Assembly: GCA_964621395.1 (NCBI GenBank) | Contig: CAZULS010000001.1 | Location: forward strand, 64,615 to 128,614 | From: an uncultured Candidatus Saccharibacteria bacterium | Lineage (GTDB): Bacteria > Patescibacteriota > Minisyncoccia > Phycocordibacterales > JACNGX01 | Direction: 5' to 3' | DNA length: 64,000 nt | Shown: in pieces, positions 2,061-62,537 of the stretch | How positions within the stretch are numbered: position 1 is the stretch's first letter | Layout of the letters: each line of letters begins with the position of its first letter | Program-made: the position numbers and the translations under genes | Notes under the pieces: model-generated | The model's database searches: none | What the model was told of the DNA's origin: nothing | Seen by the model: the letters and a program-made list of their open reading frames with translations, nothing else

Positions 2061-3764
2061 ATGATTACCTTCCGCGATCCGAAACAAAAAGAACGCTACG
2101 AAGAGCTCCATAAACAAGAAGAGGAGGAATTGGTTCGTGTGCTCTCGGCACGCTATGGCGTCCCGTCGACCACCCTTTCGTCCGCTACTGTAAACACCGA
2201 TGCACTCAAGCTCGTTGCCGAAGCGGAGGCACGCAAAGCAGGCATTGCTCCTTTCGCGCTTCTCGGCAAAAAAGTAAAAGTCGCCGCTCTTTCGCCAAAA
2301 ACCAATGAGGTAAAAAGTATACTGGAAGATCTTTCCCGTCGCGGCTATGAGCCGGACATTGTCATGGTCTCCCACGACAGCATCGAGCAGGCATGGTCGC
2401 TGTATCCGGAAATTTCCCGTGCTGAGGAAACAGAGGCCGGTGTGTTTGACATTTCCGGAAGCCAGCTTGAGTCCATGTCGTCGGATATCGCAAAAATCAG
2501 CGACATCACCGCTACCATCGGCTCAATCACCGAGGGCGGTGCGCGTAATAAAGTGACTCGCATCCTTGAAGCACTTCTCGGGGGAGCTATTGCTATCGAT
2601 GCATCCGACGTGCACTTCGAGCCGGAAGAGGGTGGGGCTCGTGTGCGTATTCGCGTTGATGGTGTGCTTGTCGACACAGCCTCGCTCAACACGGATGTCT
2701 ATTCTTTCATCCTCTCTCGTGTCAAGCTTCTCTCCGGACTCAAGCTCAATGTGACGAAAACATCGCAAGACGGCCGTTTCAGTATTCGTCTTCATGATCG
2801 CAATATTGAAATTCGTGCATCGGTGATTCCGGAGGAACACGGCGAATCCATCGTACTCCGACTTCTCGACCCCACATCGCTTGGGCTCGCTTTTGAAGAT
2901 CTCGGTATTGACCCGGCACTCTTTGAAGTGATAAAGCGAGAAATTTCCCGCCCGAATGGCCTTATTCTCACCACCGGTCCGACAGGATCAGGAAAAACAA
3001 CCAGTCTCTACGCATTCTTAAAGCATGTGCATCGTTCGGAGGTAAAAATCATTACGATTGAAAATCCGATTGAATACCATCTCGACGGCATCACACAAAC
3101 ACAAACCAATCTCAAAGAAGGCTACACCTTCGCCCAAGGACTCAAAACCGCCCTCCGCCAAGACCCGGATGTGATCATGGTCGGTGAGATTCGCGATAGC
3201 GACACAGCCCAAACAGCACTCAATGCCGCCTTCACCGGACACCTTGTCTTCTCCACGCTCCACACCAACAATGCCGCCGGTGTTATCCCGCGCCTGGTAA
3301 ATCTCGGTGTGAATCCAAAGCTTATCTCTTCAGGATTAAATCTTTCTCTCGCACAGCGACTCGTGCGTCGCGTGTGTCCTTCCTGTCGTCGTCCGTATGA
3401 ACCAACGGAAGAAGAAAAAACCCTCATGAAGGGTATTATCGAGCGTTTTAACGCAAAGCGCGGTACCGAAGAAACGCTCGAGGGACACACGCTCTATGAA
3501 GCAAACACTGACCCGGATAATACATGTCCGGAATGTGGTGGGCTTGGGTATAAAGGGCGCATCGGTGTCTATGAAGGTATCCTCACCGACGGTGCCATTG
3601 AGCGCGTCGTTCTCTCCGACATGCTCACCGAACGAGAGATACGCAAGGCGGCCGAAGCGCAGGGAATCCCAACGATGGCCGAGGATGGTATTGTGAATAA
3701 AGTCCTCGCAGGTTTGACCTCATTTTGGGAACTTCGTCGAGTTGTGGATTTGGATGAATCGTGA
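2061..3764 (+). CDS. pilB: Type IV pilus assembly / type II secretion ATPase (PilB/GspE family)
   Basis: Walker A GPTGSGKTT; GspE-type Asp/His boxes; C-terminal tetracysteine CPSC...CPEC zinc-binding motif; 567 aa. Confidence 0.85.
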   Translation: MITFRDPKQKERYEELHKQEEEELVRVLSARYGVPSTTLSSATVNTDALKLVAEAEARKAGIAPFALLGKKVKVAALSPKTNEVKSILEDLSRRGYEPDIVMVSHDSIEQAWSLYPEISRAEETEAGVFDISGSQLESMSSDIAKISDITATIGSITEGGARNKVTRILEALLGGAIAIDASDVHFEPEEGGARVRIRVDGVLVDTASLNTDVYSFILSRVKLLSGLKLNVTKTSQDGRFSIRLHDRNIEIRASVIPEEHGESIVLRLLDPTSLGLAFEDLGIDPALFEVIKREISRPNGLILTTGPTGSGKTTSLYAFLKHVHRSEVKIITIENPIEYHLDGITQTQTNLKEGYTFAQGLKTALRQDPDVIMVGEIRDSDTAQTALNAAFTGHLVFSTLHTNNAAGVIPRLVNLGVNPKLISSGLNLSLAQRLVRRVCPSCRRPYEPTEEEKTLMKGIIERFNAKRGTEETLEGHTLYEANTDPDNTCPECGGLGYKGRIGVYEGILTDGAIERVVLSDMLTEREIRKAAEAQGIPTMAEDGIVNKVLAGLTSFWELRRVVDLDES

Positions 3765-3778
3765 GAATATACAAAAAG

Positions 3779-3953
3779 GTACGAAGTACGAACGCCTACG
3801 AACATACGAATCTTGTTTCTTGAAAGAAAACGGCTGTCATTCTGAACTTGATTCAGAATCCAGGAATAAATCTTATGGACTTCTAATCAAGTTGGGAATG
3901 ACAGCAAAAATGGGTGATGGAGCAAAAGCCATGTTCGTATGTTCGTATTGATT
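3779..3953. repeat. TACGAA-array inverted-repeat cassette. (TACGAA)n at 3779-3812 and (TTCGTA)n at 3936-3953 bracket a GTCAT-hairpin unit (3835-3863).
   Basis: gtacgaagtacgaacgcctacgaacatacgaatc ... gttcgtatgttcgtattg; internal tgtcattctgaacttgattcagaatcc. Confidence 0.6.
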
Positions 3954-4278
3954 TGTAGTTCGCAACCCAAAAGAAAAGAACGCATAATCCTCTAAACAAA
4001 ACTTTAAGTAAGACACTAAAAGGAGAATATACACTGGGGATAGTGTCAGCACTTTCCACGGAAAGTGAAACACCAACACGTCCTTGCATATATTCCGATC
4101 ATTTGTTTAGAGGATTATACGTTCTTTTGCATCAAAAATATTCGTCTTTTTTGAGATGCAAAACAACACGCCGCATCAATCTTTCGATTATGCGGACGAT
4201 TTCGAATATTTTGTTTTCAAGTGCGTGGTGTCACTGCCGACTACCAACGTGCGGATATCCTATCATACTTGAAAAAAT

Positions 4279-5313
4279 ATGTCAACCCCCTCTCCTCACA
4301 ACAATACTCCACCTGAAAACACGCCCAAAGACGAGCAAGTCCTGGATACAACGCTTCGTCCGACAAAATGGAACGACTATATCGGACAAGAACAAATTAA
4401 AAGCAATCTCCAAATCCTCCTTTCGGCGGCACATGAGCGCAACCAAGCGCCCGAACACCTCCTTTTTTATGGCCCTCCCGGTTTGGGGAAGACAACACTC
4501 GCGCATTTGATTGCGAAAGAAATGAATGCACAAATGAAGAGCACGTCGGGGCCGGCAATTGAGAAGGTGGGTGACCTTGCATCTATTCTCACCAATCTTT
4601 CCCCGGGTGATATTCTCTTCATCGACGAAATCCATCGCTTGAATAAGCTCATTGAGGAAATTCTCTATCCGGCAATGGAAACAGGTTCACTCGATATCAT
4701 TATCGGCAAAGGACCTTCCGCGCGTACTATTCAGCTCGACCTTCCTCCCTTTACCTTAATTGCCGCAACCACACGTGTCTCTCTGCTCTCCTCCCCTCTT
4801 CGCTCACGATTTTCAGGCGGCACATTCCGACTTGAGTTTTATACCGACGAAGAGATTGCACACATTGTAAAACGTTCTGCCGATATCTTGGGTATCAATG
4901 CTTCAGACGACGCAGCGGGAAAAATCGCCGAGCGAAGCCGAAAAACGCCCCGCACCGCCAATTATCTCTTAAAGCGATGTCGCGACTTCGCCCAGGTCCA
5001 CGGCAATTCCCTTGATGAGGGCGCGGTAAGTGGCGCACTCGAGCTTCTTGCCATCGATGAGCTTGGCTTAAATGCGGGCGACCGTGCCATTCTCGATACC
5101 CTTATCACCAAATTCGGTGGCGGACCGGTAGGCCTGAAGACAATTGCTGCGGCAATCTCCGAAGAAGAGAGCACGATTGAAGAAGTTCACGAACCATACT
5201 TGCTTCAACTCGGTCTCATCGACAGAACCCCACGCGGACGCATTGCCACAGAGAAAGCATATCGACATCTGGGACATGACATACCCGATGACGCGCAAGG
5301 AAAGTTACTGTGA
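4279..5313 (+). CDS. ruvB: Holliday junction branch migration helicase RuvB
   Basis: [25 protein letters not shown], and the RuvB-type C-terminal winged helix; 344 aa. Confidence 0.9.
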
Positions 5314-5317
5314 CATA

Positions 5318-5510
5318 ACAATACATTACGAATTACGAATATAATACGAATCTACGAATGGGTTATATGACTGCTTCGGACTTGCGACTTCCCCATATCA
5401 CGATATATTTTAAAGTGACATTTCTCTGGGACATCTTCTGAGAAAAACAAAACGTAAACCTAAAACTCCAAATAGAGTATTCGTATATTCGCGATATTCG
5501 TAATTCGTAA
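5318..5510. repeat. TACGAA-array inverted-repeat cassette, with (TACGAA)n at 5318-5360 and (TTCGTA)n at 5478-5510.
   Basis: acattacgaattacgaatataatacgaatctacgaatgg ... attcgtatattcgcgatattcgtaattcgtaatt. Confidence 0.6.
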
Positions 5511-5555
5511 TTTACCTTATTCTCCTACCATATTAACCTCCTAACCTCCTACCAT

Positions 5556-6086
5556 ATGTCTGGACATAATAAATGGTCAAAGATCAAACATAAAAAAGCT
5601 GCGACTGACGCGGCAAAGAGCAAGGTATTCGGCAAGATTGTGAAACTCATTGCAGCTGAGTCAAAGAAGTGCGGGGGCGATGTAAATGCACCGGGTTTGC
5701 GTGCAGCGATTGAAAAAGCAAAAGCGGTAAACATGCCATCGGACAATATCGATCGTGCGGTGAAGAAAGGCCAGAGTGCTGATCACACGGCAATGGAAGT
5801 GGTGCAATATGAAGCATACGGCCCCGGGGGCTGCGGTATCATCATTACCGGACTCACCGATAATAAAAACCGCACCGCCCAGGAGATAAAACATGCATTG
5901 TCGAAACAGGGCATTGACCTTGCGGCTCCCGGGAGTGCTTCGTGGATGTTTGAAAACACGCAGGGAGACTTCACCCCCGCAACCACCATTGCCCTTGGAG
6001 ATGACGATATGGAAAAACTCGAGAAACTTGTTGAGGTACTGGAAGAAAACGATGACGTGCAAGAGGTGTTCACAAACGTAGGATAG
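5556..6086 (+). CDS. yebC: YebC/PmpR-family protein, shortened to 176 aa (lacks about 70 aa of the C-terminal domain relative to canonical ~245-aa members)
   Basis: N-terminus MSGHNKWSKIKHKKAA...YEAYGPGG and C-terminal DDVQEVFTNV match the family. The middle region is missing. Confidence 0.75.
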   Translation: MSGHNKWSKIKHKKAATDAAKSKVFGKIVKLIAAESKKCGGDVNAPGLRAAIEKAKAVNMPSDNIDRAVKKGQSADHTAMEVVQYEAYGPGGCGIIITGLTDNKNRTAQEIKHALSKQGIDLAAPGSASWMFENTQGDFTPATTIALGDDDMEKLEKLVEVLEENDDVQEVFTNVG

Positions 6087-6292
6087 TTACGAACATACGA
6101 ATACATACCATTAATTGCTCCGTTTCTTCAATCCTCAAATCAGACCTCAATATCTAAAGTAAGACCTCTGCCACTTTATTTTATAATGAGTGAAAGAAAT
6201 TTACACGCTTTAATCAGGAGTACAACACAAAAACATGCTTAACCCTCAAACACTAGCTTCGTATGTTCGTATGTGTTCGTACTTCGTACCCC
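6084..6292. repeat. TACGAA-array inverted-repeat cassette between yebC and ruvC
   Basis: ttacgaacatacgaatacatacc ... cttcgtatgttcgtatgtgttcgtacttcgtacc. Confidence 0.6.
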
Positions 6293-6293
6293 T

Positions 6294-6770
6294 ATGCGTA
6301 TTATAGGTATCGACCCAGGTTTTGATCGTATTGGTATTGCGATTGTTGAGAAAGAGGACGGCTCTGATGTACTTGTGCATTCCACCTGTGTCGTTACCGA
6401 CCGCACCGATTCCTTTGCAGACCGACTCGTGACAATTGCCACGGAGCTTCGCACCCTCATTGAAAAGTACCAGCCCGACATGTGCGCTATCGAAACACTT
6501 CTCTTTGCGGCAAACAAAAAGACAGCCATGCAAGTAGGTGAGGCTCGTGGCGCTATGCTTCTCGTCTGTCGAGAAGCGCATCTCGATATTGTGGAATATT
6601 CACCGCTTCAGATAAAGACGGCCCTCACCGGCTATGGAAAGGCGGAGAAGTCTCAGGTTGAACAAATGGTGCGACAATTGGTGGATGTCCCCGGAGGAAA
6701 ACGACTAGACGATGAGATGGACGCTATCGCCGTTGGACTTACCGCTCTCGCACACGTGCATCATCACTGA
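6294..6770 (+). CDS. ruvC: Crossover junction endodeoxyribonuclease RuvC
   Basis: MRIIGIDPGFDRIGIAIVE... with RuvC catalytic Asp/Glu positions. Start moved to the MRIIG Met inside track ORF 6273..6770. Confidence 0.85.
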   Translation: MRIIGIDPGFDRIGIAIVEKEDGSDVLVHSTCVVTDRTDSFADRLVTIATELRTLIEKYQPDMCAIETLLFAANKKTAMQVGEARGAMLLVCREAHLDIVEYSPLQIKTALTGYGKAEKSQVEQMVRQLVDVPGGKRLDDEMDAIAVGLTALAHVHHH

Positions 6771-6830
6771 ATTGTATGAATTGACCTTCTTGTACCATCT
6801 CAGTATTAAGTAAAATATTTTGTTATGTTG

Positions 6831-7012
6831 GGTACGAAGTACGAACACATACGAACATACGAAGATAACCTCTTAAAAGGGGAGTTCTCGTCATTCCTGG
6901 CTCGACCAGGAATCCAGTAACAAACTCCTAGATCCCGCATCAAGTGCGGGATGACAGTAAAAATGAGGACTACGTCAAAAGCTGTATTCGTATGTTCGTA
7001 GTCATTCGTAGT
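6831..7012. repeat. TACGAA-array inverted-repeat cassette carrying two GTCAT-hairpin units (6890-6916 and 6931-6956)
   Basis: ggtacgaagtacgaacacatacgaacatacgaag ... gtattcgtatgttcgtagtcattcgtagtcc; internal gtcattcctggctcgaccaggaatc and gatcccgcatcaagtgcgggatgaca. Confidence 0.6.
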
Positions 7013-7202
7013 CCACTTGCAAAGAATATCAAAATGGATTACAAATAGTGTAATTATACGTTCATCATTTTTTACTTGTTTCTATGTCTATCGAAACCAC
7101 TCTTTACGAAGAGGATACACTCCTTGAAGGACTTGGTGAAAATGAAATAGTTGAAGATGGATGCGACGAAGTGACTCACGAAAATTTTGATATATAACAT
7201 AC

Positions 7203-11633: not shown

Positions 11634-11748
11634 GTCATTCCTGGCTCCTACCGAGCTCGACCTAGCTCTTTCTCGGAAAAGGGCTGGGTGGGAATCTGGT
11701 GACCAGGAATCCAGGATTTCTGGATCCCGCATCAAGTGCGGGATGACA
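11634..11748. repeat. Composite of two GTCAT-hairpin units. The first, gtcattcctgg...ccaggaatc, carries a 58-nt insertion inside its loop. The second is gatcccgcatcaagtgcgggatgaca.
   Basis: Same unit pair and order as at 6890-6956, but with an inserted loop segment. Confidence 0.55.
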
Positions 11749-25772: not shown

Positions 25773-25855
25773 AAGTGAGTTGCGAGTATCGAGTATCGAG
25801 TTTCAAGCATGGGCACCTACGGTGCCCATAGGCATACTAATCGCGTGTCTTTTTC

Positions 25856-37571: not shown

Positions 37572-37698
37572 GTCATTCCCGCCCCCGAGCGGGAATCTAT
37601 AAGTCTATATAACCAACCTGCGTCTGCCCTGGATCCTGAATCAAGTTCAGGATGACACCAATATGTATTGGGTGTCATTCCGGGCTTGACCCGGAATC
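37572..37698. repeat. Cluster of three GTCAT-hairpin units with different stems: gtcattcccgcccccgagcgggaatc (+), ggatcctgaatcaagttcaggatgaca (-), gtcattccgggcttgacccggaatc (+)
   Basis: Seen in sequence. The third unit encodes the last residues (DSGSSPE) and TGA stop of gene 37675..38310. Confidence 0.65.
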
Positions 37699-38389: not shown

Positions 38390-40348
38390 TTACTCCACCT
38401 CAATCGTCGGTAATTCATCAGGGTCTTCGGTTTCTGTGTATGTGTCGCTTAAGTCCATTAGAAATTCTGAGGGAGTTTGGGCGCTGATTGAGCCGAAGAT
38501 GGTGCGTGTGTGGGCGTAGGAGAGCCACACTTTTTTCTCCGCACGAGTGATGGCGACATAAAAGAGACGGCGTTCTTCTTCAGCACGCTCGGGACTTACG
38601 ACTGGTCCATCGAAACCGCGGTGTGGGAAAAGTCCGTCTTCAAGGCCGGTGATAAAGACATACGGAAATTCCAATCCCTTGGAAGCGTGCACGGTCATAA
38701 GGCGGACGGCATTTTCATCTTTCTTTTTCTTGGCATCGCCGAGCGAGTCTTGATCGGAAGCAAGGGCCGCGTCGGAGAGGAGCGTTTCAATTCCCTCTTC
38801 GGGTGTGAGGTGGTCGTATTTGGTCGCCAAGCCGACGAGCTCATAGACATTCTCCAGGCGCTCTTCCCCTTCTTCTTTGTCTTTGCGAAAAGCATCCTCA
38901 AGACCGGAACGCTTAATTACATGCTTGAGCGTTTGCGATACAGGGAGATTGGCGCAGTCGTGGGCGATATCGGAAAGAATGTCACGGAAAGCGTGTACCT
39001 TTGCTTGCGTTGCCGGCGGCAGTGTTGCTTCTTCTCCGGAAAGGACTTTTGCCAATGTCACCTTGCCAATACCGCGTGCGGGGACATTCACAATGCGGGA
39101 GAAATCAGCCGTGGCTGCAGGATTAAGAGCGGCGCGGATGTATGCGAGGACATCTTTCACCTCTTTGCGGGCGAAGAATTTCACACCGAGGACTTGATAC
39201 GGAATATTTTTCCCCAGCATGGCTTCTTCAAGAACGCGTGATTGAAAATTTGCTCTGTAGAGAATGGCGATGTCTTTTGGTTCTGCGCCCTGCCGGATAA
39301 GTTCTTGTATTTTTTGAGCGGCAAAGTCCGCCTCAGCTTTCTCGTCCCCGCAAGCAACAACGCTCAATCTCTCGCCCCCCTCTTTGCGGGTGAAAAGATT
39401 TTTTTCTTTGCGCAGTGTGTTTTTGCTAATGATATCGTTGGCCGCCTCAAGAATAGGCGCGGTGGAGCGATAATTTTCTTCCAAGAGCACCACGGTTGCT
39501 TCAGGGTAATCTTCTTCAAAGAGCATCATGTTGCGGAAGTCGGCACCGCGCCAGCCATAAATACTTTGATCGGTGTCGCCCACCACGCAAATATTTTTTC
39601 GCTCACCGGCGAGAAGTTTGGAAAGGGTGTATTGCGCAAAGTTGGTGTCTTGGTATTCGTCGATGTGAATGTGTGACCAGCGTGAATGATAGGTGTTGCG
39701 GATGGTTGGGTCGTTCTTAAGGAGGAGTGTGGTATGGAGAATGAGATCATCAAAATCAAGAGAACCTTCTTCTTCGAGGAGCTTTTCGTATTCGCTCCAC
39801 ACACGTGCCACGATGCGCGGGAAATATTCGTTTTCCACCGACGCTTTGTAGTTTTCGGCAGTGCGAAGCTCCCCTTTCTCGCGAGAGATGGCATTCTTCA
39901 TACGGCGCGGTTCAAATTGCTTTGGGTCGAGCTCGCATTGCTGCAACGCTTTTTTCATGAGACGCGATGTGTCGTCGTCGTCAAGAATAGTGAAATGCTT
40001 CGGACGATTGATAGCTGCAAATTCACGGCGGAGAATGTAGACGCCAAGCGCATGAAAGGTGGAGACAAACGGCGCGGAACCATCGTATGCTCGGACAGGA
40101 TCTGCCGAGAGAAGTTTTACCACACGCTCCTTCATTTCCGCCGCCGCTTTATTGGTGAAGGTAATGGCAAGGATTTGTTCCGGCGCCACGCCTGAGTGAA
40201 TGAGGTTGAGCATGCGGTGCGTGAGGGTTTTGGTCTTCCCCGCGCCGGCACCGGCCACGATAGAGAGCGGGCCGGTTGTGTGCTCGGCTGCTTTTCTCTG
40301 CTCCGGATTGAGTCCTTCGAGGTGATCCATAGGGGGTAAGTATAGCAT
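38390..40348 (-). CDS. pcrA: ATP-dependent DNA helicase PcrA/UvrD
   Basis: Motif I AGAGAGKTKTLTHR, motifs II-VI, 650 aa. Start moved to the Met at MLYLPPMDHLEGLNPEQ because the upstream extension lies inside the MITE. Confidence 0.85.
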   Translation of the reverse strand: MLYLPPMDHLEGLNPEQRKAAEHTTGPLSIVAGAGAGKTKTLTHRMLNLIHSGVAPEQILAITFTNKAAAEMKERVVKLLSADPVRAYDGSAPFVSTFHALGVYILRREFAAINRPKHFTILDDDDTSRLMKKALQQCELDPKQFEPRRMKNAISREKGELRTAENYKASVENEYFPRIVARVWSEYEKLLEEEGSLDFDDLILHTTLLLKNDPTIRNTYHSRWSHIHIDEYQDTNFAQYTLSKLLAGERKNICVVGDTDQSIYGWRGADFRNMMLFEEDYPEATVVLLEENYRSTAPILEAANDIISKNTLRKEKNLFTRKEGGERLSVVACGDEKAEADFAAQKIQELIRQGAEPKDIAILYRANFQSRVLEEAMLGKNIPYQVLGVKFFARKEVKDVLAYIRAALNPAATADFSRIVNVPARGIGKVTLAKVLSGEEATLPPATQAKVHAFRDILSDIAHDCANLPVSQTLKHVIKRSGLEDAFRKDKEEGEERLENVYELVGLATKYDHLTPEEGIETLLSDAALASDQDSLGDAKKKKDENAVRLMTVHASKGLEFPYVFITGLEDGLFPHRGFDGPVVSPERAEEERRLFYVAITRAEKKVWLSYAHTRTIFGSISAQTPSEFLMDLSDTYTETEDPDELPTIEVE

Positions 40349-40391
40349 ACGAGTTTCGAGTATCGAGTTGCGAGCAGTGTCGCTTCGCGAC

Positions 40392-47458: not shown

Positions 47459-47702
47459 TACGAACGATAAATAAAAAACGATAAACGATAAATCAAAAAA
47501 CACGAGCTCGCGCTCGTATTTTTTGTGTAAAAGATAAACCTGTAACGATATTACTTTCCACTGTCATCCCGCACTTGATGCGGAATCCAGGCAGAAGTGG
47601 GTGGTTATATATACTTTTAGATTCCCGCTCGGAGGCGGGAATGACAATCTTTCTTACTCATAAGCAGAAAATGGCACATAAAAACCCCGCACAGAGCGAG
47701 GT

Positions 47703-48407: not shown

Positions 48408-48442
48408 AAGCACGGCAACCGAAGGTTGCCGTGCTTTTGTAT
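48408..48442 (-). terminator. Rho-independent terminator downstream of yifB/comM (aaaagcacggcaaccgaaggttgccgtgctttt)
   Basis: GC stem with a GAAG loop and flanking T tracts. Confidence 0.55.
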
Positions 48443-48510
48443 GCTTAATTCGTAACTCGTAATTCCCTAGGCCGACCGTGCCGGTTGCACGGGCTAGGCT
48501 TTATTCTGCT

Positions 48511-60244: not shown

Positions 60245-60565
60245 GGGCGCTTTTTTTGTGTGGGACCATATTACATCAGTTGTCATCCTGAACTCTTGCC
60301 GAGCCCCACCTCGGAGGTCGGAATGGACAAATGAAGGAGTAATATGTCATTCTGAACTTGATTCAGAATCTCATCGAAAAGAAGCAAATAGCGAAGATTC
60401 CGTGTCAAGCACGGAATGACAATGATGGAGTTTTGCACACAAAAGCACGATGGTCGAAGGTCGCCGCGCATTTTTTACCGTTTACATGCCCGAGCACGAC
60501 TTGTCGTGCTTTAGGGTCGTTTAACGTTTATAGTTTATCGTTAGTTTTTTGAGTATAATACCTAT

Positions 60566-61477
60566 ATGTCGCACAATATTGATGAATACATTACGCGCTT
60601 TTTAGAATATGTGGAGATTGAGCGTGGGCGCAGCTTGAAAACGGTACGCAATTACGATCGCTATTTGCGGCGCTTTGTTGCCTACTCCGGTGTGAAGCAC
60701 GTGGAAGATATTACCGATGAAGGGGTGCGGCGTTTTAGACTGTGGCTCAATAAACAGCCCTCTCCCGATGGCGGTACCCTCAAGAAAAAAACACAGAATT
60801 ATTATCTCATTGCCTTGCGGAGTTTTCTCAAATACATGGCGCGCGAGGGTATTAAAACGCTCTCTCCTGAGCGCATTGAGCTTGCGAGTGTGTCTGCGCG
60901 TGATTTGGATCTCATTTCCGTGGAAGAACTCGAGCGCTTGCTTGAAGCTCCCGGGGGGAACGACTTGAAAGCGCTTCGCGACAAGGCAATGCTGGAGCTT
61001 CTTTTCTCCACCGGTTTGCGCGTGTCGGAGCTTGCCTCGCTTTCGCGTGATATTGAAATCGACAAGGACGAATTCTCTGTGCGTGGAAAAGGAGAAAAGA
61101 TTCGCGTGGTTTTCATTTCCCCTTCCGCGCGCGAGGCGGTGAAAACATATTTGGCGGAGCGCACCGATATGGACGACGCTCTTTTTATCCAGCTTGGTCC
61201 GCGTGCAAATGCTGAAGGCGATATGAGGCTTTCGCCGCGCAGTATCGAGCGCATTGTAAAGCACTACGCAATCAAGGCCGGTATTTCTCGTAAGGTGACG
61301 CCGCATGTGATTCGTCACTCGTTTGCCACAGACCTTCTTCAAAACGGCGCCGATTTAAGAAGCGTGCAAGCCATGCTCGGCCACTCCAATATCCAAACGA
61401 CACAAGTCTACACCCACGTGACCGACCGTCAGCTCAGAGAGATTCACAAAGCATTTCATGGGAAGAGGAGGAAATAG
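60566..61477 (+). CDS. xerC: Tyrosine recombinase XerC/XerD
   Basis: R...HxxR...Y catalytic residues (LRVSELASL, HVIRHSFAT, HSNIQTTQVYTHV); N-terminal SAM-like core-binding domain. Confidence 0.85.
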   Translation: MSHNIDEYITRFLEYVEIERGRSLKTVRNYDRYLRRFVAYSGVKHVEDITDEGVRRFRLWLNKQPSPDGGTLKKKTQNYYLIALRSFLKYMAREGIKTLSPERIELASVSARDLDLISVEELERLLEAPGGNDLKALRDKAMLELLFSTGLRVSELASLSRDIEIDKDEFSVRGKGEKIRVVFISPSAREAVKTYLAERTDMDDALFIQLGPRANAEGDMRLSPRSIERIVKHYAIKAGISRKVTPHVIRHSFATDLLQNGADLRSVQAMLGHSNIQTTQVYTHVTDRQLREIHKAFHGKRRK

Positions 61478-62022
61478 GTGAGTTACGAGTTACGAGTTTC
61501 GAGAGGAGAGAGTGGTTGTTTGGGCACGATGACAGAAGAGAGGAGTTTTTAGTTGGTAGTTTTTAGAAAAGGCGCGGCTAATGCCGCGCCATAAGAAAAA
61601 AGAGGGCGGCACCGCAGGTGCCGCCCTCTTTTTTCTCCATGCTCCTCCTGTGTCATTCCCGCCTCCGAGCGGGAATCTTCGCTGTTATATGAGTGAAAGA
61701 TAAGATTCTGAATCAAGTTCAGAATGACAGCAGTATAGATGTTGCAACAGCCGCGCGGACATGAATGTCCGCGCGGCTGTTTGACAATATTTGCACAACG
61801 ATATATCCTCAAAGACAGGTAACAGCTTTTTGAATAAAACGATAAGAGACATGATTATTTTAGAGCTTGGAAAAGGCGGAAAAGTTCACAGGACCCAAAT
61901 CGCCGAAAACGTGTCACTGGAAGAATTTGCGGAAACGTCTGACAGTCGTTGTGTTGTGAGTGTAGACGAGGAAAAGCGAGTGAGAGTTTTAAAAGGGGTG
62001 TATATCTTTTTTTGTTCTCATC

Positions 62023-62417: not shown

Positions 62418-62530
62418 TAACATACAAATCTACGAATCGTTACATATGTACGAATACTACAAATATACAAATACACGTTTTAATTTGTATTATTTGTACC
62501 ATGTGTAGATTTGTATATATTTGTAGATTC
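62418..62530. repeat. TACGAA/TACAAA-array inverted-repeat cassette immediately upstream of xthA
   Basis: ctacgaatcgttacatatgtacgaatactacaaatatacaaatacacg ... tttgtatatatttgtagattcgtaacc. Confidence 0.55.
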
Positions 62531-62537
62531 GTAACCT

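Follow-up and report, generated by a model that had tools for sequence, protein, structure and literature searches.

The closest described systems are the REP/BIME sequences of E. coli and Pseudomonas with their RAYT enzymes, in which short intergenic palindromes are dispersed, often within operons, as single copies, inverted pairs or clusters. Two inverted repeat copies enclose the gene of the presumed cognate enzyme, and repeat sequences vary in step with enzyme clades. The Correia/NEMIS MITEs of Neisseria (~100-200 bp, with ~26-31 bp terminal inverted repeats) are likewise non-coding, located between genes, co-transcribed and able to form long hairpins. The repeats described here share these traits, and their associated protein belongs to the GxxExxY family, whose function was given as unknown in a 2012 survey (PMC3424549).

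In the window (the whole 64-kb stretch of DNA that was analysed), inverted pairs of arms were located in four consecutive intergenic spaces (3778-3962, 5325-5511, 6086-6290 and 6831-7012), flanked by genes assigned by Pfam to T2SSE/PilB, RuvB, YebC, RuvC and a class I W/Y tRNA synthetase. These coordinates confirmed the first-pass annotation, which had placed TACGAA arrays on the left and TTCGTA arrays on the right of every intergenic space of this region, and Pfam bore out its gene names pilB, ruvB, yebC, ruvC and tyrS. An arm consists of four TACGAA hexamers at spacings of 7, 10 (+/-1) and 8 nt, plus 2 flanking nt. The cassettes measure 185-205 bp, have inverted arms of 31-38 nt and lack coding capacity:

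3778-3810, left arm of cassette 1 (hexamers 3780-3810), GG+TACGAA-G-TACGAA-CGCC-TACGAA-CA-TACGAA, nhmmer E=3e-7
3833-3905, loop filler of cassette 1, a nested GTCATTC...GAATGAC double hairpin belonging to a second repeat family
3931-3962, right arm of cassette 1 (units 3934-3962), TTCGTA-TG-TTCGTA followed by decayed TTGATT and TGTAGTTCG, E=4.9e-5
5325-5358, left arm of cassette 2 (hexamers 5327-5358), TACGAA-T-TACGAA-TATAA-TACGAA-TC-TACGAA, E=1.1e-10
5359-5479, loop of cassette 2, 121 nt of unique sequence, GxxExxY gene similarity absent
5480-5511, right arm of cassette 2 (units 5480-5509), TTCGTA-TA-TTCGCG-ATA-TTCGTA-A-TTCGTA, E=1.1e-5
6086-6108, left half-arm of cassette 3 (exact hexamers 6088-6101), TACGAA-CA-TACGAA plus decayed units, E=0.0046
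6109-6255, loop of cassette 3, unique sequence
6256-6290, right arm of cassette 3 (hexamers 6258-6288), TTCGTA-TG-TTCGTA-TGTG-TTCGTA-C-TTCGTA
6831-6863, left arm of cassette 4 (hexamers 6833-6863), GG+TACGAA-G-TACGAA-CACA-TACGAA-CA-TACGAA, E=3.4e-8
6889-6957, loop filler of cassette 4, a nested GTCATTC...GATGAC double hairpin
6984-7012, right arm of cassette 4 (hexamers 6987-7010), TTCGTA-TG-TTCGTA-GTCA-TTCGTA-GTCC, E=4e-5

The left arm of cassette 2 begins 13 nt 3′ of the ruvB stop codon and the left half-arm of cassette 3 only 1 nt 3′ of that of yebC, while the right arm of cassette 3 stops 5 nt 5′ of the ruvC ATG (6294). The latter arm is the exact reverse complement of the left arm of cassette 4 (97% over 38 nt), and cassettes 1 and 4 show homology over their entire length (76-82%). 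The hairpin-repeat sequence noticed earlier inside these two cassettes indeed proved to be a copy of the nested GTCATTC...GAATGAC family. The loops of cassettes 2 and 3, being unique and without a match among the sequences compared, count against reading the cassettes as insertion elements.

Exact hexamers are more numerous in the 64-kb window than expected (30 TACGAA and 23 TTCGTA, against ~17 each), and the eight cassette arms hold 14 of the former and 12 of the latter. The spaced pattern TACGAA-N-TACGAA-N3-5-TACGAA-NN-TACGAA yielded four matches in the window and none in 100 shuffles, and an nhmmer profile of 169 arms from other genomes retrieved precisely the eight cassette arms and no others. 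Upon folding, every cassette formed a long hairpin shut by its own arms (z = -3.8 to -9.3). At gathering thresholds, the whole window gave no Rfam matches. Promoter and terminator counts between 3700 and 7300 remained at shuffle level, indicating that the cassettes are not enriched for either.

Other repeats lie elsewhere in the window:

62418-62536, decayed fifth palindrome, mostly TACAAA/TTTGTA with 3 exact hexamers, z=-4.7
61479-61505, plus strand, solo NNCGAG array, TACGAG-T-TACGAG-T-TTCGAG, 7-nt period
25777-25805, plus strand, solo heptad array, TGCGAG, ATCGAG, ATCGAG, TTCAAG
40348-40378, plus strand, solo heptad array, TACGAG, TTCGAG, ATCGAG, TGCGAG

The region 62418-62530, to which the first-pass annotation had extended the cassette architecture, is a palindrome (ending 2 nt 5′ of the ATG of an exonuclease III-family gene), but its repeats are mostly TACAAA/TTTGTA and the arm profile from other genomes does not pick it up. 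The half-arrays proposed at 25777, 40350 and 61479 are real and non-random (three in the window vs none in 1.64 Mb of other loci), but they belong to another type of repeat, built from four NNCGAG units with a strict period of 7 nt, and none has a partner in inverted orientation. The array at 61479-61505 sits 2 nt 3′ of the stop codon of an Xer-type recombinase gene and may be a related arm type; that at 25777-25805 lies 4 nt from a minus-strand start codon.

In a syntenic relative (L123), the ruvB/yebC and yebC/ruvC spacers are 1 and 2 nt long, against 242 and 207 nt in the window, and no arms were found in 630 kb around ruvB of 80 relatives. By this comparison, the window cassettes are insertions relative to the syntenic relative. 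Within the metagenome collection, the nearest RuvB shares 74% identity, and the identical protein occurs on only two short contigs. Short-read contigs with the window's ruvB stop at the arms, so that the elements account for some of the short-read assembly fragmentation of this organism. As to target-site duplication, neither pairing nor an evident direct repeat was present beyond the 2 palindromic flanking nt, and no clean pair of empty and filled alleles was found.

Outside the window, a 24-base exact arm pattern (chance expectation ~0.01 matches by our own estimate) retrieved at least 120 loci, mostly from Patescibacteria of many lineages and some from Bacteroidota. Closely adjoining stop and start codons, these arms form short-loop palindromes, solo arms and tandem arrays with the consensus TACGAA[A/T], and copies within one genome have spacers and loops in common. 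The cassettes had been described earlier as arrays around 100-150 bp, but the basic unit is one four-hexamer arm, which also occurs solo or in tandem and usually encloses 6-60 nt. Loop lengths are bimodal, with 78 elements at 0-100 nt, 11 at 380-450 nt and no intermediates. Solo arms make up ~40% of all arms, a point that we counted against the element reading; their intergenic regions fold weakly (-2 to -7 kcal/mol) and a lone arm is unstructured. At the rpsC/rplP junction, three diverged genomes carry perfect hexamers with differing loops and spacers, which could reflect host function rather than selfish maintenance, and the pattern scan demanded exact hexamers, so that the apparent cross-phylum conservation is partly a product of locus selection. 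In viral contigs the pattern had no matches, and the elements are therefore not phage-borne. Neither Rfam nor the literature searched held a description of this palindrome family.

Complementarity between paired arms reaches 2 nt beyond the outer hexamers (21-22 of 24 paired, with 3-4 pair types) and then stops. The 1-nt and 2-nt spacers co-vary between arms (score 0.133 vs 0.056 in shuffles, of which 0/500 attained it), whereas the middle spacer does not. The paired arms can form two helices of ~14-15 bp separated by an unpaired bubble of 3-5 nt. This covariation indicates selection or repair acting on the folded form, and is equally compatible with a hairpin useful to the host.

A search for a protein associated with the arrays, as the first-pass annotation had proposed, led to the GxxExxY/PDDEXK_3 nuclease, which is specifically linked to the arms. 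All 11 elements with 380-450 nt loops encode a ~130-aa GxxExxY protein (TIGR04256, PF13366), the ORF of which lies precisely between the two arms and takes up almost the whole loop. These ORFs match PF13366/TIGR04256 alone (90-98 bits vs a cut-off of 35), and their sites include rpsG/fusA, pilT/pilC and secD/secF. Conversely, six of six independently sampled GxxExxY homologues, chosen by the single criterion of position on long contigs, had TACGAA and TTCGTA arms on their two sides (in two cases degenerate). The PD-(D/E)XK motif is intact, with residues E36, D74, E84 and K86 unchanged across 32 sequences, and the predicted fold (pLDDT 92) is that of PD-(D/E)XK nucleases, with matches to Cas4, lambda exonuclease, Hjc, EndA and I-Bth0305I. 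By these residues and this fold, the nuclease looks active. A profile search returned 14,060 GxxExxY-family cluster representatives (>14,000 clusters at 50% identity).

Different members of the family are moreover flanked by different repeats. On the same contig, a paralogue of 33% identity is bordered by four CGCTGA and four TCAGCG repeats and has an ORF-less CGCTGA palindrome nearby; two more members of its clade (75-78% identical) carry the same repeats, bringing this clade to 3/3. A third paralogue lies between ACAGAA/TTCTGT arrays. Among the members compared, GxxExxY clade and repeat sequence co-vary. No GxxExxY gene or remnant was found within the 64-kb window, which counts against the element reading, and a six-frame profile search of the cassette loops for decayed GxxExxY genes gave a best value of only E = 0.08. 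Comparison of the nuclease with defence and phage protein libraries produced no meaningful match, and the plasmid collection contained no homologue. Clustering of 901 ORFs from 120 arm loci yielded housekeeping families and two small selfish-looking families, with no transposase among these neighbours. Of the selfish-looking families, one was GxxExxY, whereas the second, the four-helix-bundle TIGR02436, had no flanking arms.

Taken together, these sequence comparisons suggest that the window probably carries non-autonomous copies of a nuclease-associated palindromic insertion-element family, with nuclease binding, cleavage and movement presumed. A complete element consists of two inverted arms round a loop, which in other genomes holds the GxxExxY gene, and the window contains four ORF-less copies in the former 1-2 nt spacers between pilB, ruvB, yebC, ruvC and tyrS, next to one decayed copy. 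Because protein clade and repeat sequence co-vary, we infer that the hexamer arrays are recognised by the element-encoded nuclease, for which the hairpin or cruciform of paired arms may be the recognised form. Cutting by the nuclease, followed by host repair or recombination, would then spread both ORF-bearing and ORF-less copies, the latter presumably being acted on in trans. The original notion of mobile-element terminal arrays is thus retained as far as insertions, dispersed arms and an associated protein are concerned, but that protein is a nuclease and not a known transposase or recombinase. No transposon is known to move by a small PD-(D/E)XK nuclease alone, which counts against the element reading. 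In a broader reading, which we put forward with more doubt than confidence, GxxExxY/PDDEXK_3 proteins might be the enzymes of an unrecognised class of minimal mobile elements (~480 bp), each clade recognising its own four-repeat array in a hairpin or cruciform that has a bubble at its centre, and driving palindromes with or without the ORF into more gene junctions of streamlined genomes.

Alternatively, the short palindromes could be the older component, having spread by some other route as selfish or host hairpins, and a free-standing GxxExxY homing endonuclease could cut the intact palindrome and enter its loop by repair, with the arms as repair homology and the insertion splitting the recognition site and so protecting the occupied copy. 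The exact placement of the ORF between the arms, its near filling of the loop and the bimodal loop lengths would fit such a route, as would the existence of PD-(D/E)XK homing endonucleases (I-Bth0305I being among the fold matches) and the presence of GIY-YIG mini-ORFs at similar junctions. Moreover, in one operon of genome L204, copies with and without the ORF occupy neighbouring junctions and have identical arm spacers, and the ORF can be present or absent between close strains. Specifically, at the rpsG/fusA junction L204 has a TACGAA-GxxExxY element, whereas strains with a 94%-identical S7 have an AT-rich palindrome unrelated to it; we also took this turnover as support for the insertion-element reading. 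However, at this sole polymorphic junction examined, the ORF-less allele is a different palindrome and not an empty TACGAA one; arms of 31-35 nt are short for recombination homology, and the arrival of ORF-less palindromes at many unrelated junctions is left unaccounted for. We regard this route as rather unlikely. We consider it less probable still that the palindromes are transcribed within operons as intercistronic hairpins useful to the host, either for RNase III-type processing or for 3′ stabilisation (as with E. coli REP and phage T7 R-sites), the nuclease gene being an occasional passenger. Such a role is in line with their location between co-directional genes, 2-15 nt past stop codons and 5-13 nt ahead of start codons, in ribosomal-protein, pilus, sec and ruv operons. 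It also agrees with the very stable folds, the spacer and flank covariation, the conserved bubble between two ~14 bp helices and the occupation of one junction in three diverged genomes. Nevertheless, sense and antisense folds were equal (37 vs 32, p = 0.99), with the antisense fold being the more stable in the window, ~40% of arms are solo and unstructured, and no Rfam family matched. Pure structure would not keep six invariant bases per unit either, and the elements are missing from the same operon in 80/80 relatives.

That the arrays are operator or iteron-like sites, at which a host DNA-binding regulator or nucleoid protein would control the flanking genes, is very improbable. Although four direct hexamers per arm resemble the sites of multimeric regulators and arms lie near start codons, the 7/10/8 nt spacing puts the sites off a single helix face and the arrays are linked specifically to the nuclease gene. 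The iteron-like sites of the first-pass annotation are likewise not supported, as the arrays are not kept with the operon in the 80 relatives and lie beside unrelated genes in other genomes. A LexA/Cheo box (CGAAC-N4-GTTCG) by the ruv genes was also rejected, the hexamers being direct repeats that form no palindromic box and the consensus of the family being TACGAA[A/T]. Pairing with the 16S rRNA 3′ end was dropped as well, given only partial complementarity within a structured region. We give hardly any credence to invertible promoter switches (invertons) or integron-like attC cassette boundaries, even though cassettes of ~180-200 bp with ~31-bp inverted repeats have the size of invertons, cassette 2 contains one sigma-70-like match, and the succession of helix, bubble, helix and variable loop resembles a folded attC site. 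Most loops of the family (6-60 nt) leave nothing to invert, promoter-like matches stay at shuffle level (7 vs 6.1), and the genes on either side are housekeeping genes whose order is conserved. Moreover, the elements have no associated integrase or invertase; the window's single tyrosine recombinase gene lies 53 kb away.

The favoured reading, that of nuclease-associated insertion elements, can be set against each known system. Like free-standing homing endonuclease genes (T4 seg/mob, I-Ssp6803I, I-Bth0305I), the complete elements place a small, co-oriented nuclease ORF between conserved genes, patchily present between close relatives; unlike them, the ORF is bracketed by arrays that also occur ORF-less at many unrelated sites of the same genome. 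As in integron attC sites, two short helices, an unpaired central spacer and a highly variable terminal loop are found at gene boundaries, but there is no adjacent integron integrase, R and L boxes are missing, the hexamers are not GTTRRRY, and the neighbouring genes (ruvB, yebC, ruvC) belong to the core set and keep their synteny. The NIME of Neisseria similarly hold variable internal intergenic sequence between conserved inverted repeats (dRS3), and the nested GTCATTC...GAATGAC family inside two window cassettes is dRS3-like; the repeat sequences differ, however, and no link to filamentous prophage integration was found. The cassettes have the terminal inverted repeats and small size of MITEs and contain no ORF or GxxExxY remnant. 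In contrast to Correia/NEMIS elements, there is no recognisable TA target-site duplication or IHF site, the terminal repeats are hexamer arrays and the loops usually span 6-60 nt, while the coding partner is not a DDE transposase: full-length partners with the same ends encode a PD-(D/E)XK nuclease without known transposase activity.

The elements explain a puzzling trait that recurs in the genomes of ultra-small CPR bacteria, namely long palindromic spacers within tightly packed, conserved operons, and the flanking arrays give the GxxExxY family a concrete, testable functional hypothesis. If the pairing of clade and hexamer reflected direct recognition, the family would be a possible source of small sequence-specific nucleases. 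Under the broader reading above, the modular match of repeat to clade would also amount to a natural set of nucleases with readable, array-type sequence specificity. With regard to REP/RAYT, the enzyme is a PD-(D/E)XK nuclease (PF13366) and not an HUH/Y1 transposase (Y1_Tnp, PF01797), the arm comprises four direct hexamers and is not self-complementary, in contrast to the ~20-40 nt imperfect REP palindrome with its GTAG/GTGG head, and one repeat type (TACGAA) is common to many phylum-level lineages. If our reading is true, these elements would constitute a second, mechanistically different case of an enzyme gene flanked by its own dispersed repeats, beside REP/RAYT.

Rereading of positions 3600–7200 bore out the array positions of the first-pass annotation, and Pfam confirmed its gene identities: in all four intergenic spaces of the pilB-ruvB-yebC-ruvC-tyrS stretch, two to four TACGAA hexamers stand at the beginning and two to four TTCGTA hexamers at the end. 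Neither hexamer is abundant overall: the window totals 30 TACGAA and 23 TTCGTA hexamers (expected ~17 each), and 26 of these 53 lie inside the eight arrays. Hexamer spacing within each four-hexamer arm is constant at 7, 10–11 and 8 nt, and the pattern TACGAA-N-TACGAA-N3-5-TACGAA-NN-TACGAA matched four times in the window versus zero times in 100 shuffles. Following a profile search of the 64 kb with an arm profile from other genomes, the eight arms were recovered and nothing else. These arms, and the further repeats discussed below, are located as follows.

Repeat features of the window
3778-3962, cassette 1 (inverted arm pair), pilB–ruvB
5325-5511, cassette 2, ruvB–yebC
6086-6290, cassette 3, yebC–ruvC
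6831-7012, cassette 4, ruvC–tyrS
62418-62536, palindrome with decayed arms
25777-25805, + strand, solo NNCGAG array, four units, 7-nt period
40348-40378, + strand, same
48440-48465, + strand, same
61479-61505, + strand, same
3833-3905, GTCATTC...GA(A/T)GAC element (family ~70–115 nt)
6889-6957, same family
11634-11747, same family
37572-37660, same family
47562-47645, same family
60345-60421, same family
61651-61731, same family
3974-4000 / 4102-4128, inverted repeat

Every cassette folds into a long hairpin with the arms as closing helix (z = –3.8 to –9.3). Cassettes 1 and 4 are homologous end to end, and reverse-complementing the right arm of cassette 3 gives exactly the left arm of cassette 4. 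Unique sequence makes up the loops of cassettes 2 and 3; those of cassettes 1 and 4 are each filled by a nested copy of a GTCATTC-hairpin...hairpin-GAATGAC repeat family that is represented at least seven times in the window. Resembling Neisseria dRS3, each copy has ATTC(C)/GGAAT-like boxes around two variable hairpins. The region at 62418-62536, proposed earlier (as 62418-62530) to share the cassette architecture, is indeed palindromic but carries mostly the decayed variant TACAAA/TTTGTA. Decay of arms mostly takes this form, from TACGAA to TACAAA and from TTCGTA to TTTGTA (also in L020 29-91, L081 and L103, loci outside the window); these are transitions at CpG, and sometimes both arms have changed, which preserves their pairing. 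Two short-read Logan contigs with the window's ruvB (L121, L122) end exactly within TACGAA arms, which means that arms recur in the genome often enough to break assembly.

The supposed degenerate half-arrays at 25777, 40350 and 61479 do contain repeats, but of a different kind, with four NNCGAG units in a strict 7-nt period, and other CPR loci totalling 1.64 Mb contained no such heptad array; among the sequences compared, the repeat is confined to this genome. Like solo TACGAA arms, these arrays adjoin gene starts or stops, the one at 61479 beginning 2 nt past the stop of a gene for a Xer-type tyrosine recombinase (60566-61477). The long pilB-ruvB spacer also contains, just past cassette 1, the 27-nt inverted repeat (96% complementary, 101 nt enclosed), whose arms are not hexamer arrays and which also occurs in the same organism's Logan contigs. 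The yebC and ruvC genes lack a Shine-Dalgarno sequence (5510-5557, 6289-6296); upstream of yebC lies a CCTCC-rich direct repeat (CTCCTACCATAT twice) in the anti-Shine-Dalgarno sense, and ruvC begins 5 nt past the arm.

A RuvB scan of metagenome contigs yielded 80 related loci (54–74% identity), none of which carried arms. One syntenic relative, L123, has the same pilB-ruvB-yebC-ruvC-tyrS gene order, with a ruvB|yebC spacer of 1 nt versus 242 nt in the window and a yebC|ruvC spacer of 2 nt versus 207 nt. By this comparison, the window cassettes are insertions.

The distribution of the arms was examined by scanning a 24-base exact pattern over 596 Gb (chance expectation ~0.01 by our own estimate), which matched more than 120 loci; because exact hexamers were demanded, arm diversity is under-sampled. 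Among the matches listed, the majority were Patescibacteria (Nomura-, Moran-, Doudna-, Falkow-, Magasanik-, Uhr-, Nealson-, Saccharibacteria and others) and some were Bacteroidota, including one 212 kb long-read contig, while 2.9 million viral contigs gave no match. Most commonly, the arms formed a palindrome whose loop was short (6–60 nt), and ~40% of arms were solo, without a partner. The outer end of an arm lies 2–15 nt from a stop codon or 5–13 nt from a start codon, so that the element fills essentially the whole spacer. Typical neighbours are core, highly expressed genes (ribosomal proteins, EF-Tu, EF-G, PilB, PilC, pilins, DnaK, ATP synthase). The rpsC|rplP junction holds an element in three diverged genomes, with perfect hexamers and different loops and spacers. 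A few Bacteroidota contigs contain head-to-tail tandem arrays of the four-hexamer unit (L015 7090-7364, L076 3421-3631, L110 1237-1536) with periods of 41, 60 and ~81–91 nt.

The first-pass annotation had suggested seeking a DNA-binding protein or transposase associated with the arrays. No recurrent transposase family was present among the genes neighbouring arms, but ORF clustering revealed a small protein family inside the loop in L053, L072, L062 (ORF disrupted) and L110, corresponding to the GxxExxY family (TIGR04256; PF13366 PDDEXK_3). Among TACGAA palindromes, loop length follows a bimodal distribution (78 at 0–100 nt, 11 at 380–450 nt), and every one of the 11 long loops encodes a GxxExxY protein. 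In an independent sample of six homologues of the L072 protein (49–66% identical), picked solely for long contigs, every gene had a TACGAA arm directly before its ATG and a TTCGTA arm right past the stop codon, two of the pairs being degenerate. These ORFs were wedged co-oriented into rpsG|fusA, pilT|pilC and secD|secF, and also upstream of rpsA; ORF-less palindromes with identical arm spacers occurred at the same loci. The 64 kb window itself contains no GxxExxY gene. In L110, the tandem array forms one flank of such a gene.

The protein has invariant E...D...ExK residues and a confidently predicted PD-(D/E)XK fold, with structural likeness to Cas4, lambda exonuclease, the Holliday-junction resolvase Hjc, tRNA-splicing endonucleases and the homing endonuclease I-Bth0305I, and no specific closest relative among these matches. 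The family comprises 14,060 cluster representatives (E <= 0.001). Its function was listed as unknown in a 2012 survey (PMC3424549), and our full-text literature search on GxxExxY/PDDEXK_3 returned no paper tying it to repeats. Members of ~265 aa with two matched stretches (e.g. P0373, P0379, P0405) are tandem-duplicated or fused nuclease domains. Small GIY-YIG ORFs of 67–86 aa (L204 3630-3890, L206 6691-6894) are intergenic in the same conserved operons as GxxExxY elements, and no TACGAA arms flank them.

Across the members compared, the repeat sequence changes with the protein clade. In L062, a paralogue (33% identical) sits between four CGCTGA and four TCAGCG hexamers with an 11–12 nt period; 3 kb from it is an ORF-less CGCTGA palindrome. 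Two more members of this clade, from other genomes, have identical CGCTGA/TCAGCG repeats, and another GxxExxY paralogue has ACAGAA/TTCTGT arrays on its flanks.

The str operon of L204 reads rpsL-[TACGAA palindrome]-rpsG-[arm-GxxExxY-arm]-fusA. Strains with a 94% identical S7 keep the rpsL|rpsG palindrome and have an unrelated, ORF-less AT-rich palindrome at rpsG|fusA, and at 80% S7 identity both junctions hold palindromes of yet other short repeats. Operon junctions in these genomes have thus been colonised again and again by array-type palindromes of differing specificity, and since the same junctions in relatives hold other short-repeat arrays, these genomes may in general carry array palindromes of many specificities at gene junctions. 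Palindromes of AATTTTAA, AAGCTA and GCGAGCG type were seen at rpsG|fusA (L215, L218) and at both junctions (L221).

The anatomy of the palindrome was derived from 24 distinct complete copies. The 2 nt beyond the outer hexamers are paired in 21–22 of 24 (3–4 pair types), with no pairing further out. Between arms, the 1-nt spacer co-varies, as does the first base of the 2-nt spacer (score 0.133 versus 0.056 in shuffles, none of 500 as high), and the middle spacer of 3–5 nt shows no complementarity and is often of unequal length between arms. The folded element thus has two ~14–15 bp helices with a bubble between them and a very variable loop on top, and the co-varying spacers show that folding matters. 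What folds may be DNA, as a hairpin or cruciform that is possibly the nuclease substrate, or a transcript. Across 69 arm-containing spacers between co-directional genes, folding was as good in sense as in antisense transcripts (37 versus 32, p = 0.99), which speaks against selection on sense-strand RNA, and this lack of strand asymmetry argues for DNA. In the window, the antisense fold is more stable than the sense fold. The elements may also benefit the host as intercistronic hairpins, which may explain their retention at some junctions. No Rfam family matched in the window.

In the best-supported interpretation, the window elements are non-autonomous members of a palindromic family whose arms are the arrays recognised by an element-encoded PD-(D/E)XK nuclease; its binding and cleavage we infer. 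The nuclease would recognise the hexamer arrays, and either cut at the outer ends of elements, as a transposon would, or cut intact palindromes so that the ORF is copied into the loop, as in homing. Both modes fit the data, and no target-site duplication was seen flanking elements. A homing component is favoured by the bimodality of loop length and by the ORF lying exactly at the centre. This organisation resembles REP/RAYT systems, in which an enzyme gene lies between copies of its own dispersed repeat and the repeat co-varies with the enzyme, and it also parallels MITEs, although the enzyme class and arm architecture of the TACGAA elements are unlike both.
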